Shown here piece by piece: positions 21,071-28,209 of a stretch of 28,209 nt of DNA. The stretch spans positions 1-28,209 of IMG/VR virus record IMGVR_UViG_3300038673_000236; one strand, 5' to 3'. Position numbers and translations under genes: made by a program. Each line of letters starts with the position of its first letter. Position 1 is the stretch's first letter. Under the pieces are notes generated by a model that ran no database searches, was not told the origin of the DNA, and was given only the letters and a program-made list of their open reading frames with translations. The DNA comes from a virus. Taxonomy: Duplodnaviria; Caudoviricetes.

Positions 21071-22740
21071 ACGAACAAAGGTCCTCTTGTTTCGTAAATT
21101 GATCGCCCATTCCTGGCCTCCGGATTCATGGCCATCAAAGCAACAGCCATGAACGTGGCAATGAGCGGGTCAATTTTCCCTGTTCCGCTCGCCTGCTTGG
21201 TGATCAGCACGGCGTTACCCTTCTGTTCGCATCTTGCATTCCCCACACACCAGTTCATTATCGGTTGCCCACCGTGCAACAGGTGGCCTTCGGCTACCCG
21301 GCGCTCAGTGGCCTTTATCGCTCCGTTGAGCCTCCACCCTTGGGAGATACCCACAACCCTTTCATGCTCAATTCCTGCTTCAACAATGGCGTCAACGATG
21401 TCACCTATGCCGGCAGGGTCAACAGCTATCCTGTCAAGAAGTCCGGAATCCTCGCATTGCTTTATGATGTCGCAAAACTGCTCGATATCTTCGCCAATAT
21501 TCTTGACGATTACCAAGTCGCCGGCCCGTTCAAAATCCCTGTATTTCGATTCTTCGCTCTTTCTGCGCTCAAGTGCTATCGGATGACACCACGCCTTGAC
21601 CCACAAGCGCCAGATGCGCGGATCCTCTGCGTCTCTCCCGAGCAGGGCTAGACCAAGAAGGTCGTCAAGTCCTCCACCGTCTCCTCCAGCCGTGATGACA
21701 TCAGATTTCTCGATGATTTCATCGAGCGTGACGCCTTTGCTCTGCTGCTCCCAAAAATCGGCGCCAGGCCACCGGTCGGAACGGAGATTCAGTCCAATTT
21801 CAACATTGAGATGCTTGGCAAGAAACTGTTGAAACGATCCATCGGTCTTTGTTTGGTTTTCGATCAACTTGTCTTGCAACCACTCAGCGTCAACCGATCT
21901 CCCTATGTTCGGGTTGGTGATGTAGAAATTTTCAGGAAGCAAGTATCCCTGATCTTCAACCATCTTTCCAGGGAACTCGTACAGTATGCCAAGGGCCTTT
22001 GGGTTTGAAATTATTCCGTCGCGTACATTGCGGAAATAGTCGAGTTTGTCCTTGAACACCCCGGCAGGAGGCTCGTCGCTTTGAGTTGTAAGGTAGATGA
22101 CCCAACCTTCAGGCCTGCTGATCTGGCCGCCAAGCGCCTCCATGAACATGGAAACAGCGTTTGCCTTCTTGCCGAATAGCCAATGCTCGTCAACGAGAAC
22201 ACGGCCAGACTTCTTCCCAGATACGGTATCGGTATCGGCGGCGACAACCTTGAGCGAGGCTTTCGTGTTGCGATGGGTGATTGTGCGAATGTGATCCTGG
22301 ACATGAAAAAGATCGGAAAGCTCTTCGTCTGCACGGACCATCCCTGCCGCAGGTTTGAAAGAGTTGTCGGCTACTTCCTTGGTCGGGGCAAGGATAAGGT
22401 GTTCCTCGTCTTCCCTCCAACAGATGATCACCGCGGTCAACATGATTCCGGCCGCTATGGTCGACTTGGTATTTTTCTTTGAAATGAGTAGGTAGAATTC
22501 CCTTATGAGTTGCCGGCCGGTCTCTTCGTCGTATGCCCCGAATATTGCTGACACGAAATCGAACACCCACTGTTCGGAACATTCTCCGAATGTTGGCTTC
22601 CCTGGGAGGTCGACTACCCTGAGCTGCTTGAAGATGTTCAGCGCGTACTCTGCCGTTTCCGGGAAGATCGGTGGAGGAATGATCGATTGACGGTTTGTCA
22701 GGCGTTGTTCCCAGTCAGGGCAGGCTGTCGACCAGTTCAT
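21067..22740 (-). CDS. terL: Terminase large subunit
   Basis: ISKKNTKST (variant Walker A), VLVDE (Walker B), DGGGLDDL and GKIDP nuclease motifs. Confidence 0.96.
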   Translation of the reverse strand: MNWSTACPDWEQRLTNRQSIIPPPIFPETAEYALNIFKQLRVVDLPGKPTFGECSEQWVFDFVSAIFGAYDEETGRQLIREFYLLISKKNTKSTIAAGIMLTAVIICWREDEEHLILAPTKEVADNSFKPAAGMVRADEELSDLFHVQDHIRTITHRNTKASLKVVAADTDTVSGKKSGRVLVDEHWLFGKKANAVSMFMEALGGQISRPEGWVIYLTTQSDEPPAGVFKDKLDYFRNVRDGIISNPKALGILYEFPGKMVEDQGYLLPENFYITNPNIGRSVDAEWLQDKLIENQTKTDGSFQQFLAKHLNVEIGLNLRSDRWPGADFWEQQSKGVTLDEIIEKSDVITAGGDGGGLDDLLGLALLGRDAEDPRIWRLWVKAWCHPIALERRKSEESKYRDFERAGDLVIVKNIGEDIEQFCDIIKQCEDSGLLDRIAVDPAGIGDIVDAIVEAGIEHERVVGISQGWRLNGAIKATERRVAEGHLLHGGQPIMNWCVGNARCEQKGNAVLITKQASGTGKIDPLIATFMAVALMAMNPEARNGRSIYETRGPLFV

Positions 22741-23099
22741 TTATTGATATTCACAACCTTTGGCCCGCTCATAGCGCCGAACCTTCCTTTTCCAGCCTCT
22801 TTTGCTGCTGCTTCCCTTTCCTGCTTCTTTCCGCCTTTTTCTCCAGCCTTGGGATGGCAAAAAGGAGCTGCAAGAGCTGCCATTCTATCACGGCGATCCT
22901 TCGGCTGTGTTTCGTCACGCATGACACTGAGCATGTATTCGAGCGGGGAGATATCTGAAGATGAAACAGCGCTCAAGACCTCCTGTTTTATCTCTTCATT
23001 GGTTGTCGGTTGAGTGTATTTTACCTTGTCCTCTGGAAACCATTTTGGTTGCTTCCCCTTCGGGCGGCCAGATCCTGGTCTATACCCACCTCTTGGCAT
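22737..23099 (-). CDS. terS: Terminase small subunit
   Basis: MPRGGYRPGSGRP N-terminus, PLEYMLSVMRD; coupled to terL. Confidence 0.85.
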   Translation of the reverse strand: MPRGGYRPGSGRPKGKQPKWFPEDKVKYTQPTTNEEIKQEVLSAVSSSDISPLEYMLSVMRDETQPKDRRDRMAALAAPFCHPKAGEKGGKKQEREAAAKEAGKGRFGAMSGPKVVNINK

Positions 23100-23112
23100 T
23101 TGATTGCACCTC

Positions 23113-23256
23113 TTTTTGATTATTTTTGATTATTCAAATCAATCATAACGTGCCATTTTGCAAGGTTGTTTATCAAAAACAGAGAAATAATCTGCGCGTG
23201 AGGGGCGCGGCGGTCTCCGGGTGCTCAAAGTTGCAGAGATTGACACCGCCCCCCCT
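23113..23256 (-). other. Putative cos packaging region
   Basis: Between HNH and terS; minus strand G-run ... GACCGCCGCGCCCC (23215-23202) resembles HK97-type 3' cos; tandem TTTTTGATTA at 23113-23132. Confidence 0.55.
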
Positions 23257-23276
23257 TCCTGACTGTGGCCTGGCGG

Positions 23277-23594
23277 TCAGGAAGGATTGCACCTTTCAAG
23301 TCGCTCCAGATCGCTCTTTGACCGGTGACACGCCTTGCATAACGATTGCAGATTGTCCTCTGCATCCGATCCACCACGGTGCAACGGCTCGATATGGTCG
23401 ACCTCTACAGCACGCACCACAAGCCCCAGCTTGGCACAGTTCTGGCACAGATACCCGTCGCGCTCCAACACTCTCGCCCTCTTGCGCATCCATGGCCGGC
23501 CACGATCCCGATTGACCACCGGCACAGCTCCAGCCCTTGCCGTATCGATCGTCCTTACCCTTGTTGTCTTGATGCACTTTATCTTTTTTGCCAT
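23277..23594 (-). CDS. Terminase-associated HNH endonuclease (HK97 gp74-like)
   Basis: W...R..VL.RD..LC..C, EVDHI.PL..GG, NLQSLC..CH..K. Confidence 0.95.
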   Translation of the reverse strand: MAKKIKCIKTTRVRTIDTARAGAVPVVNRDRGRPWMRKRARVLERDGYLCQNCAKLGLVVRAVEVDHIEPLHRGGSDAEDNLQSLCKACHRSKSDLERLERCNPS

Positions 23595-23614
23595 GTTGCA
23601 CAGATTTCTCTTTG

Positions 23615-23646
23615 AGATAACACGACTTTTGAATATCGTGTTATCT
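23615..23646. repeat. 11-bp perfect inverted repeat (operator or + strand terminator)
   Basis: AGATAACACGA-N10-TCGTGTTATCT followed by a T run. Confidence 0.6.
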
Positions 23647-23651
23647 TTTTG

Positions 23652-23966
23652 TCATAACTCTACTTTAGCGATCAAAACGATCCCGTCACAATCGCCGCTG
23701 CACTTAAACCTTGAGCCACACATTGAGCATTTCTCGGGCCACCAGCGACGCCAAAGCCAGTAACTCAGCCAGTCCCTTGCGCGGTTGTGTCGCGTGTCGC
23801 CAATCATGTCGCCATAGCTCACGCACTCGCCACAGTGCATGCACGTTGCGTAGTCTGGCGGCGCGCTATCCTGCGGGTGTTGCTCGCACCCGAACCACCA
23901 GCACCGCAGCCGCATGCCCGCTAACTTTACGGTCAAGGCGACTGCCAAAAGCTGCGCTTTTGTCAT
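23652..23966 (-). CDS. Cys-rich hypothetical protein (cassette 1)
   Basis: CWWFGC, CMHC and CSMC; GGAGG RBS and ATG both lie inside the attC. Confidence 0.7.
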   Translation of the reverse strand: MTKAQLLAVALTVKLAGMRLRCWWFGCEQHPQDSAPPDYATCMHCGECVSYGDMIGDTRHNRARDWLSYWLWRRWWPEKCSMCGSRFKCSGDCDGIVLIAKVEL

Positions 23967-23987
23967 CCCCTTACCTCCACGTTAGCC
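23919..23987 (+). repeat. attC site 1
   Basis: R'' CGCTAAC, 5-nt spacer, L'' GGT(C)AAGG, inner stem CAAAAGC/GCTTTTG, L' CCTTACC, 5-nt spacer, R' GTTAGCC. Confidence 0.88.
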
Positions 23988-24326
23988 TTCCATCGCCAGC
24001 TTGATAGCCCGGCGCACTCTTTCAAAATCGCCACGCGAAAACAGCACCCCGCCGTAATCATCGTCCCGACAGTCCATCTCCGCATCCAGCCAGCGCAATG
24101 CCTCCAACATTTCAGGGGCGGAGGCAATCAACTTGGCGTTGGCTTCCATGATCGGCACTCGGCCTTGCACACCACGAGCAGAAATCGCGCATACCGGGTT
24201 GCCGCTGCAATCCTCTACGATTAACCGGCCTTTCTTGTCTGGCGCGATTCCGGCAGTCACAGACCACGGGCCGGAACTATGCACCGGGTAATCTTTCCCG
24301 CTGTAGGCTGTCTTGTTGTCGTTCAT
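23982..24326 (-). CDS. Phage early-region hypothetical protein (cassette 2)
   Basis: HSSGPW...EANAKLIASAPEMLEAL motif common in phage accessory genes; TAA lies in the R' core. Confidence 0.8.
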   Translation of the reverse strand: MNDNKTAYSGKDYPVHSSGPWSVTAGIAPDKKGRLIVEDCSGNPVCAISARGVQGRVPIMEANAKLIASAPEMLEALRWLDAEMDCRDDDYGGVLFSRGDFERVRRAIKLAMEG

Positions 24327-24583
24327 ATCGTCTCCCTTATTTCCTCAATGAGTGTTTCCAGGTCCGAGCATTCTTGCTCAAGTGCTTTATGCAGTGCTTT
24401 ATTCTTGTGTGCACCTTGCATTTCCGAATATAACCTCCCGAGCAACGACGCTTCCAGGTACAGCAACGTCCGTCTTAGTAGTTCGCCGCGCAACAAATTT
24501 TCAGCAACCTGCTTCTCTTGGTGATTTTTCATCAGGCAAGAACCGCAAATAATATTCTCGCTGTGGTTACAGGAGGTTATCAT
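24323..24583 (-). CDS. Hypothetical protein (cassette 2)
   Basis: Coupled to both neighbours (TAATG and ATGA overlaps). Confidence 0.7.
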   Translation of the reverse strand: MITSCNHSENIICGSCLMKNHQEKQVAENLLRGELLRRTLLYLEASLLGRLYSEMQGAHKNKALHKALEQECSDLETLIEEIRETI

Positions 24584-25017
24584 TACAGAAGCCCCTCCTT
24601 ATCAAGTCCGTCTTGCACAAAGTTCAAAATCGCCTCTTCCGCTTTCTTGTCACGGTCAATGTAAAACCGGTACAGCAATTCCTCTGCCTTCAAAGCTCGT
24701 TGGTACATATCTTCTGCGTGAGCCTTTGCGTGTGCCGCCGAACGATCCGGATCAATGAATTTGCCCAACGGTTTCCACTCCATCGGCATTTTTGAAAACG
24801 GGTTCCAGGCGTGCGGCTTCCATTGCATGGTTCCGCCGCACCGCGAACACATCACGCAGGGGTCAATCGCAACTTTGCCGTCATCGTCAACAATGGCAAT
24901 CTGATATACCCACCGGTAATTATCCGCCTTCGTCCTGATTACAATCTCGTCGCCTTTGTACTTCGCCAACGGAAAACGAGCATCATCTATACTTATCCAT
25001 CCGTTTTGGTCAGACAT
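24583..25017 (-). CDS. Hypothetical protein with DUF551-like WISI N-terminus (cassette 2)
   Basis: NGWISIDD start and CxxC; begins 20 nt from the attC. Confidence 0.7.
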   Translation of the reverse strand: MSDQNGWISIDDARFPLAKYKGDEIVIRTKADNYRWVYQIAIVDDDGKVAIDPCVMCSRCGGTMQWKPHAWNPFSKMPMEWKPLGKFIDPDRSAAHAKAHAEDMYQRALKAEELLYRFYIDRDKKAEEAILNFVQDGLDKEGLL

Positions 25018-25036
25018 AAACCATCCAATAAACCAC

Positions 25037-25096
25037 GGCTAACCAGCGGGTCAAGCGGACGCGAAACAGCCGCGCCGCTTACCCTTGGCGTTAGTT
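25037..25096 (+). repeat. attC site 2
   Basis: R'' GGCTAAC, L'' GGT(C)AAGC, GG(A)CGCG/CGCGCC, L' GCTTACC, R' GTTAGTT; extrahelical G and T on the bottom strand. Confidence 0.92.
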
Positions 25097-25321
25097 TTTC
25101 AGATAGCCTTTGTATCCCAAGTCCCCTTTCATTTGGGCATCCAATAAATGCAGAACATCACTACCAATCAGCCCAAATTCATAAGCACGGCCCAAGTGAG
25201 CATCACACCAGGACAAGAAAACTTTCCGAAAAAGAAAGATAACTACCTTGTCCACCACCCTGCTTTTTCTCGAATCTTTCACAATCCGAACAGATTTTTC
25301 AACATCATATGCCATGATCAA
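25091..25321 (-). CDS. Hypothetical protein (cassette 3)
   Basis: AGGAG RBS; TAA in the R' core; fills the cassette. Confidence 0.75.
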   Translation of the reverse strand: MIMAYDVEKSVRIVKDSRKSRVVDKVVIFLFRKVFLSWCDAHLGRAYEFGLIGSDVLHLLDAQMKGDLGYKGYLKN

Positions 25322-25338
25322 ATCTCCTATAAAACCAA

Positions 25339-25426
25339 AACTAACAATCCAATAAACCCGACAAGAAATCGCCTGGTTCTCAACTCTGGTTGCCCGCTGG
25401 CTTGCGGGTTATTTCTGCCGTTAGGC
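25339..25426 (+). repeat. attC site 3
   Basis: R'' AACTAAC, L'' AAT(A)AACC, CG(A)CAAG/CTTGCG, L' GGTTATT, R' GTTAGGC. Confidence 0.88.
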
Positions 25427-25651
25427 GCTTACCCACTCAGCGTTGCCCACCGGCTCCATTTCTTCCCACTTTGCGCGGTAGTAAGCCTGCCCTCCCGGCT
25501 TGCCGTCTTCGCCAAGTGCCTGCACATACCCTTGCGCACCGAATGCTTTAGGCTCGGTCACAACCATGATGCAGGCCGCAAACATTGGGTTAGCCACCGT
25601 CTCGGGGTTAAGTTGCACAAGTTGCCCCTCTTTAAGTTCTTGCTGTTTCAT
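25421..25651 (-). CDS. Small SH3/KOW-like hypothetical protein (cassette 4)
   Basis: AAGGAG RBS; LKEGQLVQL start; TAA in the R' core. Confidence 0.8.
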   Translation of the reverse strand: MKQQELKEGQLVQLNPETVANPMFAACIMVVTEPKAFGAQGYVQALGEDGKPGGQAYYRAKWEEMEPVGNAEWVSA

Positions 25652-25676
25652 GGTCTTTCTCCTTTGGTTGTTCCGT

Positions 25677-25739
25677 GCCTAACATTTGCGTCAACGCGGA
25701 CGCTCCGCAAGCGTCGCGCCGGTTACGCCAGCGTTATTC
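25677..25739 (+). repeat. attC site 4
   Basis: R'' GCCTAAC, L'' CGT(C)AAC, CGG(A)CGC/GCGCCG, L' GGTTACG, R' GTTATTC. Confidence 0.88.
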
Positions 25740-25740
25740 C

Positions 25741-25968
25741 TCACCGGCAATTGCTATTTACGTAATCTCTCCAAGCGTAGAGCACTCTTTTGGCCAAATC
25801 TTGATCGGTAAATCCAATCGCCTCTTCCCTCGGGTAAGACCCTTCGCCAGCTCGATCAGATTCGTCAAGACACCATTCCCTTTGCCCATCTGTCATTGGA
25901 GAAATATATCGCCCCTCCGAATATGCTCTCAAAACTCGCTCGTTGTGGCCACATAGGCAATCGGCCAT
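25741..25968 (-). CDS. Hypothetical protein
   Basis: Co-oriented 75-aa ORF ending next to the last R' site. Confidence 0.65.
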   Translation of the reverse strand: MADCLCGHNERVLRAYSEGRYISPMTDGQREWCLDESDRAGEGSYPREEAIGFTDQDLAKRVLYAWRDYVNSNCR

Positions 25969-26091
25969 GTATCAAATCGTGCGCCAAACGCTCTGTATTC
26001 GATTTTTTATTCAAAACGTCCCGACCTACGTGCATGGTCTTAAAAATAGAACCAGCGGCGCGACAGGTGGCTAGAATGAGTTGTTTTGGAT

Positions 26092-26508
26092 TCATTGCGC
26101 TGTGGCCGTGTTGAAGTTTTCATTCATTGACCGGAAAAACGATCCTCCGCTCCGCTTGATCTCCTCTCCTTTGCGCTCGTATTGGGCCGCTTTTCGCTCC
26201 ATAAGCATCTGCACTCCTCCTTTCTGTACCACTCCCCACACTACCCGCCCATCTCCGTCTATGCGGTCCGGGTAAAAACCTCGTCCTCGAAGATCGCTCA
26301 GAATACGGGCTACCTCTGCTCGCATCTCCATGGTCCAGCTCTTGACTGCTTTTTCAAACTCCTCTGGCCCCTTTGTCCGAATAGTGGCAGAGAGAAACCG
26401 CTTCAGCATCTCCATTTCCTCGAAGCTGCATAGGTCGCACGGTTGCAGGTCAACCGAAAACATCGGCGGCAAATTCATCGTTGCTCGTTCACTGTGATGG
26501 TGCTGCAT
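26092..26508 (-). CDS. Hypothetical protein downstream of the replication initiator
   Basis: Co-oriented and overlaps the rep 3' end; start uncertain. Confidence 0.6.
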   Translation of the reverse strand: MQHHHSERATMNLPPMFSVDLQPCDLCSFEEMEMLKRFLSATIRTKGPEEFEKAVKSWTMEMRAEVARILSDLRGRGFYPDRIDGDGRVVWGVVQKGGVQMLMERKAAQYERKGEEIKRSGGSFFRSMNENFNTATAQ

Positions 26509-27415
26509 TCGCTATCCTCTCCGTTTTCTCTCGCTCTTTACGCTCACTCTCTGCCCTTGCGGCTTTAATCTTGCGCAGCCACTCGGCCTGTTCCGCCTCT
26601 GTTGGCGCTGTTGAGTCGCTCACCGGAGAGGATCTGCCATTGCGAGCGAGTTGCAGGTAGCTCTCGAACTTTGTTCCGAACAAGGTTTCAGGCCGCAGGA
26701 AGGCACACATCTTGGCATCAGTTGCCCACTCTTCATGCTTCGCACGTATAACCGCCTCAAAATCCGGCAACCTCCAACCTTCATTCCATCTGGCTTTTAT
26801 GTGCCGCCTCGTGGCTTGCGAATCGGCTTTGAACTGGCACCCACAAACTTCGTTCAGTTTGGAAACGATAGCAGCATAAGGAACAGGGGTGGAAGGGGTC
26901 GGGCTATCTTGCCCGACAGAAGACCGAAGGTCTTCTTTATATTCCTGCTCCTGCTCCTGCTCCTGCTCCTGATAAGGCATACTCTTCCCGAAGTCTTTCG
27001 GTAAGGCTTTAACAAAGGCTTTCCCAAGGCTTTCGGCACACTCGCAAGCTGCCGTTATTGCTTGATAAAGCAGATTGCACTCTGGAAGGTTGTCAACGCT
27101 ATTTACCCACGCTTTTACAACATTTGGCGACTCCGGCCGGTTGTACTTCATGAAGTTCGGGAGCCAGAAAAATGAAGCCTCCTCATCATGCTTTGCCATG
27201 CCCTTCGACAAGGCTTCGCGAAAGGCTTCGCGAAAGGCTTTCTCTGTCCATCCTATTTCTGCGGCAAGCCCTGGGATAGTTCCGCGCATCGCGCCCAATG
27301 CCGTGGTGTTTGGGTGTGTAAGCAGGAAGAAAAAAACGAGTTTTCCGTCATCTGAAAGCCCCCTGAATTTCGCATCATTCCAGATTCTTGGGTCAACCTT
27401 TCGATACTTGGCCAT
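26489..27415 (-). CDS. Phage replication initiator with conserved C-terminal domain (Phg_2220_C-like)
   Basis: YRKV.P.IW.D.KF N-terminus; QEQE linker; IKARW.EG....DF..VI...W..D.KM..FLRPETLFGTKFESYL; GGAGG RBS. Confidence 0.88.
   Translation of the reverse strand: MAKYRKVDPRIWNDAKFRGLSDDGKLVFFFLLTHPNTTALGAMRGTIPGLAAEIGWTEKAFREAFREALSKGMAKHDEEASFFWLPNFMKYNRPESPNVVKAWVNSVDNLPECNLLYQAITAACECAESLGKAFVKALPKDFGKSMPYQEQEQEQEQEYKEDLRSSVGQDSPTPSTPVPYAAIVSKLNEVCGCQFKADSQATRRHIKARWNEGWRLPDFEAVIRAKHEEWATDAKMCAFLRPETLFGTKFESYLQLARNGRSSPVSDSTAPTEAEQAEWLRKIKAARAESERKEREKTERIANAAPSQ
27003..27240. repeat. Iteron-like AAGGCTT repeats within rep (putative origin)
   Basis: AAGGCTTT at 27003, 27015 and 27026; AAGGCTT at 27210, 27222 and 27234. 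Confidence 0.55.
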
Positions 27416-27431
27416 TATGTGAGAACCTCCG

Positions 27432-28161
27432 TTACCTACTCAACATTAACCACGCGGCTGCCGCTTGGATCGGCACTTGCCCGTTGCCACACGCTTTAAC
27501 GCGCGCTCCTTTGGTGCATCCGTCCATCTGAGTGGCCACCCCATCCACCATTCCGCAAATTCCGGCGTCAGGCGGTGACCAACTGTATGTGCCAGTGTAT
27601 CCCGCAGCGGCTTGGATCGTTTCAGCACTTGCTTTTGATAGCCCGCCTCGCTGTGTGGCGATTTGTAGTCGCTGGCGCAGAGCGTCGGCAGGCGAAATAA
27701 AGCACCAGTCAGTTTGTAATTTCCCCGACTGTCCCTTGAATTTGGTCCACCGTGATCGGCATCCGATGACAGCAATGTCGGTAGCAAATGTTTCATCGCC
27801 CCGGGTAGGCGAGACATTGTTTTCGGTGTGACCTTCGCACCTCCAGAACGCTTGCTGTCCACGCTGCAAAGAGTGGGCAGACGTTTCAATCGTGTTGCCA
27901 GACCATCCCCACTCTTCTCTCCGCTGCCTTTCCTGTTCCAGTTGCTGGTGACCGTCAAGGTTGGCAGCGAGCAACCACCAGCGATCACGCTTGTGACCTG
28001 CTCCGACAGCAGCAGCGGTAAGCGTTCCGTCTTTCCAGGAATCGGCAACAGGATTCTTCCCACTCGACGGCGAGCACTGGCCGGTGTCCGAGGATGAGGT
28101 CTGCGAGCAATCCGCCGCCAGCTCCGGCGAATAGGTGAGCTGTGCGTAATCCTCCATTCAA
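27432..28161 (-). pseudogene. C5-cytosine DNA methyltransferase alpha-type gene with an out-of-frame internal deletion
   Basis: TTG 28161 frame gives LFAGAGG...AVE (motifs I-II) and stops at 27985; motifs VIII (VGAGHKRDRWW) and X (KACGNGQVP) are in another frame; no PC or ENV motif seen. Confidence 0.85.
27446..28063 (-). CDS. Overlapping-frame C5-MTase beta-type polypeptide (4 LPTL TRD-like repeats plus motif IX), probably 5'-decapitated
   Basis: LPTL x4 and RLTPEFAEWWMGWP..WT. Confidence 0.75.
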   Translation of the reverse strand: MGRILLPIPGKTERLPLLLSEQVTSVIAGGCSLPTLTVTSNWNRKGSGEKSGDGLATRLKRLPTLCSVDSKRSGGAKVTPKTMSRLPGAMKHLLPTLLSSDADHGGPNSRDSRGNYKLTGALFRLPTLCASDYKSPHSEAGYQKQVLKRSKPLRDTLAHTVGHRLTPEFAEWWMGWPLRWTDAPKERALKRVATGKCRSKRQPRG

Positions 28162-28208
28162 AACAACCTCCCTTGCACCGGCTTTTCCCCTTCTTTCTTC
28201 TTGACCGA
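28158..28208 (-). CDS. 3' end of the upstream gene (...KPVQGRLF*), truncated by window
   Basis: Open frame whose stop overlaps the MTase starts. Confidence 0.4.
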   Translation of the reverse strand, partial: SVKKKEGEKPVQGRLF

Positions 28209-28209
28209 T

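Follow-up and report, generated by a model that had tools for sequence, protein, structure and literature searches.

Introduction

Clusters of at least two attC sites with no nearby integron integrase gene (CALINs) are known from phages. Qi et al. (2023; PMC9892861) listed 17 of them in 10,705 phages, including TJE1, H101/PH101, and P12002L, and found IntI1 to be active on five of six sites. The chemistry is that of the bacterial integron, where, according to the available text of PMC5027507, IntI cuts the folded bottom strand of attC within 5'-AAC-3' and this strand selection is explained as keeping cassette genes facing Pc. Loot et al. (10.1101/2022.09.11.507474) described insertion of cassettes by IntI at short GWT sites outside the platform, together with SALINs; the available text deals with standard cassettes in bacterial chromosomes and mentions neither coupling to stop codons nor phage arrays.

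The array considered here lies in a 28,209-base viral record, referred to throughout as the window, and resembles the CALINs of Qi et al. in being a phage attC cluster without intI that carries small accessory genes. What distinguishes it from a classical integron is its polarity. Rereading of the cultured phage H101 places its four sites at about 75.9–78.0 kb with the folding strand the same as the annotated gene strand, so that H101 too is reversed; in TJE1 the genes lie on the strand that does not fold, which is the classical arrangement. The text of Qi et al. does not separate these two kinds of array, though its figures and Dryad annotation may show polarity, and as far as that text goes it contains neither a phage IntI clade nor a comparison of cassette boundaries. 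PubMed Central and bioRxiv, to which the literature search was confined (subscription journals lay outside its scope), yielded no account of reversed polarity as a rule in phages or of a phage IntI clade, and the available part of PMC13366799 added nothing on the subject. The array described here belongs to a reversed class of phage cassettes and works like an integron array seen from its opposite strand.

Results

The phage and its gene order

The window is the whole of a record recovered from the metagenome of a bioreactor, and its completeness is put at 57%; partial relatives occur in wastewater. From 1 to 28 kb every annotated gene is on the minus strand, in blocks that comprise tail, head, portal, terminase, HNH, the array, small genes, a replication initiator, and a DNA methyltransferase. 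The replication initiation gene (26489..27415, minus strand) lies upstream of the array. The first gene downstream is an HNH endonuclease (23277..23594, minus strand), with the terminase genes next; in complete reversed integrons the position of this HNH gene is held by intI. The terminase is 64–70% identical to terminases of Burkholderia and Bordetella phages, and on that account a betaproteobacterial host may be guessed. The C-terminus of a tyrosine recombinase at 2–244 and a tRNA-Pro at 234–306 point to a temperate phage.

Comparison of positions 23100–28209 with 50,697 GenBank phages by blastn gave low-complexity matches only. Among terminase relatives (68–79% identity) there was no attC match in the 52 loci searched out of 80, and 4 of the 80 gave a site with a strict scanner, in each case a single weak one. 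Since these relatives are nearly free of attC, the array does not characterize this head lineage.

Anatomy of the attC sites

An earlier note on this DNA had described four attC hairpins, with the plus strand as the top strand of each. Both claims are borne out. A covariance model was trained on the bottom strands of 66 bacterial attC sites, none of them with the motif common to attC1 and attC2, and it matches the window at exactly four places, all on the minus strand: attC1 (23919–23987; 40.1 bits), attC2 (25037–25096; 53.3 bits), attC3 (25339–25426; 40.5 bits), and attC4 (25677–25739; 39.5 bits). The next best score is 11.9 bits. A rule-based scan also recovers all four, against 0.515 chance hits per window at its looser L-box score and 0.025 at its stricter one in 200 order-1 Markov controls. 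Every site has an R'' box of the RYYYAAC type, an R' box of the GTTRRRY type, L'' and L' arms, and spacers of 5–6 nt. In all four the L'' arm, the left arm on the plus strand, contains one extra base, which identifies plus as the top strand and minus as the folding strand.

The folding energies are uneven. The bottom strand of attC1 folds at −17.4 kcal/mol and its top strand at −11.0, with a z score of −5.1 against shuffled sequences; the corresponding z score for attC2 is −2.8. In attC3, which is 88 nt long with a long terminal stem, the attC fold is not the best structure by energy alone (z −1.8), and in attC4 the fold is present but weak, no better than that of shuffled sequences (z −0.7; 41/200). 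An Rfam search gave no relevant match, and a repeat search with exact seeds did not group the four sites because what they have in common is structure rather than sequence.

The attC anatomy and the extra bases are those of classical integron sites, as are the purine-rich unpaired spacers (0.62–0.67 versus 0.64) and the matching of cassette ends. Two of the four reversed sites of H101 are among those shown to be active with IntI1 and attI1 (PMC9892861, available text). By analogy with them, the sites of the window may be IntI substrates.

Cassettes, genes, and borders

The sites divide the array into units of 317, 1109, 330, and 313 bp, as the earlier note had proposed. Its end-matching holds fully for the three internal units (3/3). 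In unit 1 the match extends over 6 bases, because a T occupies the position of the G and this core is T|TTAGCG rather than G|TT.

Cassette 1 (23665..23981, plus strand; 317 bp) has the ends TTAGCG/CGCTAAC. Its gene (23652..23966, minus strand) encodes a Cys-rich protein of 104 aa with a weak match to the Fer4 motif and 74% identity to a homologue in locus L378. The gene probably starts inside attC1, where GGAGG stands 8 nt before an ATG, and reads through the left core; the L378 relative has its stop just ahead of the core. Cassette 2 (23982..25090, plus strand; 1109 bp) contains three minus-strand genes: a (24583..25017; 144 aa), a member of a viral cluster with a weak match to phrog_23180; b (24323..24583; 86 aa), with no family match; and c (23982..24326; 114 aa), which matches phrog_1273 and has its TAA stop in the core of attC1. 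Cassette 3 (25091..25420, plus strand; 330 bp; ends GTTAGTT/AACTAAC) carries a minus-strand gene of about 76 aa (25091..25321) with no family match, whose TAA stop lies in the core of attC2. Cassette 4 (25421..25733, plus strand; 313 bp; ends GTTAGGC/GCCTAAC) carries a 76-aa minus-strand gene (25421..25651) that matches phrog_19062 and stops on a TAA in the core of attC3. In cassettes 2, 3, and 4, then, the last gene terminates on the TAA of the neighboring core.

All six open reading frames are on the bottom strand, co-oriented with the phage operon, in agreement with the earlier note. Three of the six match PHROGs (E values of 7e-10, 4.5e-3, and 1e-24), and the two long plus-strand frames have no match. 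The cassettes are therefore not of the classical kind read from Pc, with the gene on the top strand and attC at its 3' end. Pfam, PADLOC, and Atlas yielded no function for the cargo. A defense-family search with seven proteins gave one match, at E 0.007, and none that was strong; the cargo does not appear to consist of anti-phage defense cassettes.

At the right, the junction falls within R' of attC4 (25677..25739, plus strand) and reads G|TTATTC, 7 nt past the stop of the upstream phage gene. The left junction (23646..23670, plus strand) is not supported as an attI: it scores −11.9 on a matrix of phage attI candidates, which is at background level (mean −16.3, sd 7.4), other types of attI being outside the matrix. 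It resembles the right arm of attC1, a resemblance noticed post hoc and equaled by 19 of 8050 background positions, and is likely to be what remains of the right arm of a collapsed attC, not an attI. It is plausible that a deletion took away the platform end of the array. Just to the left lies an AT-rich inverted repeat (23614..23646) with a stem of 11–12 bp and a fold of −9.7 kcal/mol. It has no covariance-model match and is not an attC, and its hairpin pattern had no matches in the viral contigs searched.

The array is not a complete integron, for there is no intI beside it and no recognizable attI at its first cassette; with four clustered attC sites and no nearby intI in a contig that is 57% complete, it is a CALIN.

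Movement of cassette 2

If the cassettes are mobile, relatives should differ at the G|TT boundaries. The 144-aa gene gave relatives in 10 viral and 21 metagenome loci, which with L120 makes 32 loci. Homology reaches the left end of cassette 2 in 15 of these and stops at 23980/23981 in 13, with 12 distinct flanks; it reaches the right end in 11 and stops at 25093/25094 in every one, with nine distinct flanks. The left-end exceptions extend 10–20 bases further (to 23961 in L464 and 23970 in L470), and the match in L469 begins at 24035, 54 bases inside the left end. In L459, L470, and L476 the unit is covered by a single alignment at 85–93%. In an independent study, one contig of 22,571 nt contains 23980–25093 with four differences in 1114 nt and other sequence on both sides; so close a copy amid different neighbors indicates recent movement. 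In public runs, loose ends at 23980 occur in two further studies and loose ends at 25092–25093 in one or two further studies, plus a possible source sample. Cassette 2 moves as a unit bounded by G|TT, and its recurrence with the same cut points beside other neighbors supports the earlier proposal that attC recombination shuffles phage accessory genes.

A homologue of the cassette 1 gene in L145 occupies an end-matched 313-bp cassette with a different attC, and the one in L378 adjoins an attC. Sites like attC1, attC2, and attC4 are found beside other genes in the public runs. Over 22 loci with relatives of the cassette genes of the window, 42 of 42 covariance-model matches lie on the coding strand. 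One locus of 29 (L099) has an attC ahead of the cassette 4 gene, which in the other 28 is an ordinary attC-free operon gene.

Genes within cassette 2 are also swapped among relatives without attC, so other recombination must act too. In three relatives (L461, L464, and L479) a hairpin, possibly an IS-like insertion, stands in place of the rest of attC2. The eight public runs used, out of 21 (the other 13 having small shares), contained no joint expected of a cassette circle or an empty site, and their contigs drop rare variants. In several public runs depth over cassette 2 is very high compared with the flanks; this was set aside as evidence of copy number or expression, since all the data are contigs and the runs labeled RNA are probably DNA.

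Reversed arrays in other phages

One attC pattern was found in 121 viral stretches and, among about 770 stretches from bacteria or archaea, in 132. About 80 loci per set had flanks and were analyzed, and 29 further loci were added to the viral set. A first measure of orientation, from long open reading frames within 1.2 kb, was too noisy and was replaced by calls limited to the cassette and by a PHROG test. With one caller and duplicates removed, the viral cassettes (n = 206) have their genes on the bottom strand in 163 cases and on the top strand in 15, with 28 uncalled. The cellular (bacterial) cassettes (n = 231) give 29 bottom, 161 top, and 41 uncalled. By array majority, some contigs being counted twice, the viral set gives 59 bottom, two top, and three tied (n = 64), and the cellular set three bottom, 49 top, and nine tied (n = 61). 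End-matching is alike in the two sets (141/206 viral, 163/231 cellular). The PHROG test, which takes the longest frame on each strand of a cassette and is independent of frame length, was applied to 70 cassettes drawn at random from 127 end-matched viral ones; at 1e-6, 25 bottom-strand frames matched and no top-strand frame did. The reversed layout is thus a widespread class of phage cassette and not a quirk of one contig.

The cargo of these arrays is that of ordinary early regions. Seven of the 25 matching frames are DNA methyltransferases; the others include Lar-like proteins, HNH, RNA ligase, radical SAM, PAPS reductase, and queuine tRNA-ribosyltransferase. The arrays sit at the far end of early operons (82/146 candidates scanned). 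The 40 upstream neighbors include 14 recombination exonucleases or annealing proteins and five methyltransferases; integrases, helicases, HNH, and terminase are found among the downstream neighbors.

Of 140 bottom-strand end-matched cassettes, 58 have a gene that stops on the core TAA, 44 stop before it, 35 read through, and three have no nearby stop. Where there is read-through, AAC is in frame in 33 of 35 (p 4e-8). A ribosome-binding motif and start within the bottom strand occur in 70 of the 415 viral sites and in 24 of the 312 bacterial ones, a modest excess.

Phage integron integrases

The contig, at 57% completeness, contains no integron integrase. The recombinase fragment at 2–244 scores 26 bits against an integron-integrase cut-off of 265, which is weak evidence, since it is a fragment. 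An IntI above the family cut-off is present in three of 50 array-bearing viral records and in one of the 14 near-complete ones; bacterial genomes with arrays have an IntI in 26 of 36 cases.

A search with the three viral IntI sequences found 314 viral relatives, of which 80 were kept. In 43 of the 80, attC lies upstream of intI on the opposite strand, the classical platform geometry seen in bacteria, and in none does it lie upstream on the same strand. Four loci have only a downstream attC and 33 have no detected attC, many of these loci being cut short. Cassette calls at these loci are 49 bottom, 11 top, and 15 uncalled. The direction of intI is accordingly that of the cargo, which it follows. 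In 30 loci (29 distinct) a candidate attI lies no more than 200 bases from intI, and its ending is often of the TGT-CGTTGAA-TTTAA-G|TT type. With a matrix made from the 29, 23 exceed the background maximum when left out. Some viral contigs carry a complete reversed integron, with intI, a conserved attI-like site, and cassettes.

In a FastTree phylogeny of 107 IntI sequences, 46 of the 63 viral ones form a clade with support of 0.994 that includes none of the 44 bacterial ones; the other 17 viral sequences fall outside it. The viral sequences were picked as best matches to clade members, and sampling favors the clade. The bacterial sequences include the closest ones from 401 genomes of one proteobacterial class, other classes being barely sampled. 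Loci without a full motif-bearing frame and three loci from unpublished genomes (G382, G125, and G394) were left out of the tree, and these three were counted only in the tally of 117/401 bacterial genomes. The best identity to a bacterial IntI is 60–66%, and that to a viral one is up to 82%.

Discussion

The observations are best explained, with a probability that we put at about 0.8, if the array is an integrase-less, reversed, phage-type array of four cassettes that are moved by IntI acting in trans and whose genes are read from a phage early promoter. Each attC precedes its gene, and the strand that folds is also the one that codes. It is likely that the integrase on which this CALIN relies is supplied in trans, by another phage or by the host, and excises and inserts the cassettes. 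The earlier note had offered a host IntI or the phage's own recombinase. The second option fares poorly, for the contig's own enzyme is a non-IntI prophage integrase fragment 23 kb away; the host option stands, and a phage-clade IntI appears at least as likely a source.

Cleavage would presumably occur at AA|C of the folded bottom strand, as in bacteria. Because that strand is also the sense strand, the joint would read TAA|C or an in-frame AAC. An incoming cassette would therefore fall between genes, or the upstream gene would extend into attC; in either case the operon would be unbroken. The attC would become the leader of the new gene and often supply a stop, a ribosome-binding site, or a start. 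Transcription would come from a phage early promoter upstream of 28 kb, a position suggested by geometry only; a promoter scan gave seven sites versus 3.5 ± 1.8. The array has probably lost its intI/attI end, or has grown by attC × attC recombination and insertion at secondary sites. The right junction, with its G|TT in an intergenic gap, and some copies of cassette 2 that lack a neighboring attC would fit the insertions described by Loot et al. The bottom strand of the first core has AAA where AAC is expected; this change would fix the left border of cassette 1, and cassettes 2–4 would stay excisable.

It is possible, though unlikely, that the array is a relic, in which once-mobile cassettes are now spread by homologous or illegitimate recombination and the attC cores serve as short shared linkers. 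The lack of intI and attI in the contig, the decayed left junction, the weak folds of attC3 and attC4, and the mosaic interior of cassette 2 are all consistent with such a history, as is the lack of IntI in most array-bearing phages. However, the homology ends on the core and gives way immediately to unrelated sequence, and the attC sites at the two flanks are unlike in sequence, so that no homology is left for recombination to use; the near-identical copy of cassette 2 between other neighbors is also difficult to reconcile with a relic.

Movement by a phage tyrosine recombinase that is not an IntI, either the phage's own integrase or a Xer-like enzyme, is less probable again. The contig does carry a tyrosine recombinase fragment, such enzymes adjoin some IntI-less arrays (L127, L153, and L169), and a second attI-like junction is common to several arrays of this kind. 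The fragment, however, abuts tRNA-Pro 23 kb from the array, as a prophage integrase would, and the four sites score as standard IntI-type attC. Prophage integrases normally end early operons, as in the lambdoid layout, which explains their adjacency to arrays.

Backward insertion of ordinary bacterial-type cassettes through top-strand (R'') recombination, or inversion of a piece of a host integron, is the least probable account and is largely refuted, for although top-strand recombination does yield inverted insertions (PMC5027507, available text) and would likewise place the gene's stop beside the GTT core, it flips gene and site together and would put the extra bases on the other arm, whereas here they are canonical relative to the plus strand, the bottom-strand model scores all four sites on minus, the sites of IntI-bearing phages face away from intI as usual with the genes toward intI, and the cargo is phage-type.

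The reading of the array as an integrase-less client of trans-acting IntI may be extended to a system that mirrors the bacterial one. It is rather more probable than its contrary that a virus-specific IntI clade, with its own attI, shuffles reversed cassettes of ordinary early genes that are traded among unrelated phages, and that arrays such as this one are its clients. The cargo of such a system would include anti-restriction methyltransferases and Lar-like proteins, and insertion would take place at stop or Asn codons. Its likeness to classical integrons would lie in the anatomy of attC and in the intI-attI-attC geometry of IntI-bearing phages. In contrast to classical integrons, the bottom strand carries the gene, attC is at the gene's 5' end, transcription from a Pc cannot read the gene, intI is co-oriented with a cargo of phage early genes (methyltransferases, Lar-like proteins, HNH), and the newest cassette would be distal to the promoter.

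In many phages, then, the same chemistry appears to be used for the opposite layout, and the polarity of gene to site would therefore be set when the cassette is made and by selection, not by the enzyme. The findings suggest a precise, homology-free route for the exchange of phage accessory genes, and integrons of the host might be acted on by an integrase that phages encode. They also point to a rule of design by which genes could be inserted into operons. Genes such as that of cassette 4, attC-free in 28 loci and cassette-borne in one, provide before-and-after pairs for the question of how cassettes are created. If the mirror-image system proves true, it would be the phage counterpart of the bacterial banks of defense cassettes, and the making of new cassettes could be followed in it.

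Flanks of the Cassette Array

At the very start of the window (positions 2–306), the C-terminal part of a tyrosine recombinase (+ strand) runs into a tRNA-Pro(CGG) gene, and this arrangement is likely to represent a prophage integrase together with its attachment site. A close relative of the phage (approximately 95–99%), found in the wastewater study P2, covers 21365–23586 and 26677–28042 of the window; it departs from the window at 23586, immediately before the array. Between the array and the start of the HNH gene lies an AT-rich inverted repeat (23614–23646) with the ends GATAAC/GTTATC, overlapped by a weak sigma-70-like site on the + strand. The repeat is possibly a regulator site for the late genes, or else the remnant of an att site.

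Changes in and around Cassette 2

Among relatives of the three-gene cassette 2 (23982–25090), genes have been gained, lost, or swapped inside the cassette without involvement of attC in L462, L464, L473, L478, L479, and L486. The points of change lie in short segments of shared sequence close to start codons, at approximately 24314–24322 and 24590–24597. In L461, L464, and L479 a different hairpin, which presumably resembles the end of an insertion element, takes the place of attC2 (25037–25096), starting after the R'' core; a loose end at 25027 in the public sequencing run X3 has an end similar to this hairpin.

Other Viral Arrays and Their Cargo

Several viral arrays that have no integron integrase (IntI) have in common, at their left junction, a second attI-like junction: L137, L151, L153, L159, L165, L127, L184, L110, and L180. 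A GTCTA-type box lies 5 bases upstream of G|TT, often with a further GTT core approximately 28 bases upstream, and the junction may be the mark of another integrase lineage. A different geometry is seen in L405, L425, and L445, where the attC sites lie downstream of a viral IntI and on the same strand; the integrases of L405 and L425 fall outside the main viral clade.

Reversed arrays can be long: a single 61-kb contig carries two (L113 and L124) of at least eight sites each, and L175 and L146 have 10–11 sites. DNA methyltransferases are abundant in the cargo of reversed viral cassettes, where genes for Lar-like proteins and queuine tRNA-ribosyltransferase are also present (examples are L112:2954–3757, L137:3158–3928, L180:3894–4634, and L132:7337–7579). 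This content suggests a role in counter-defence.
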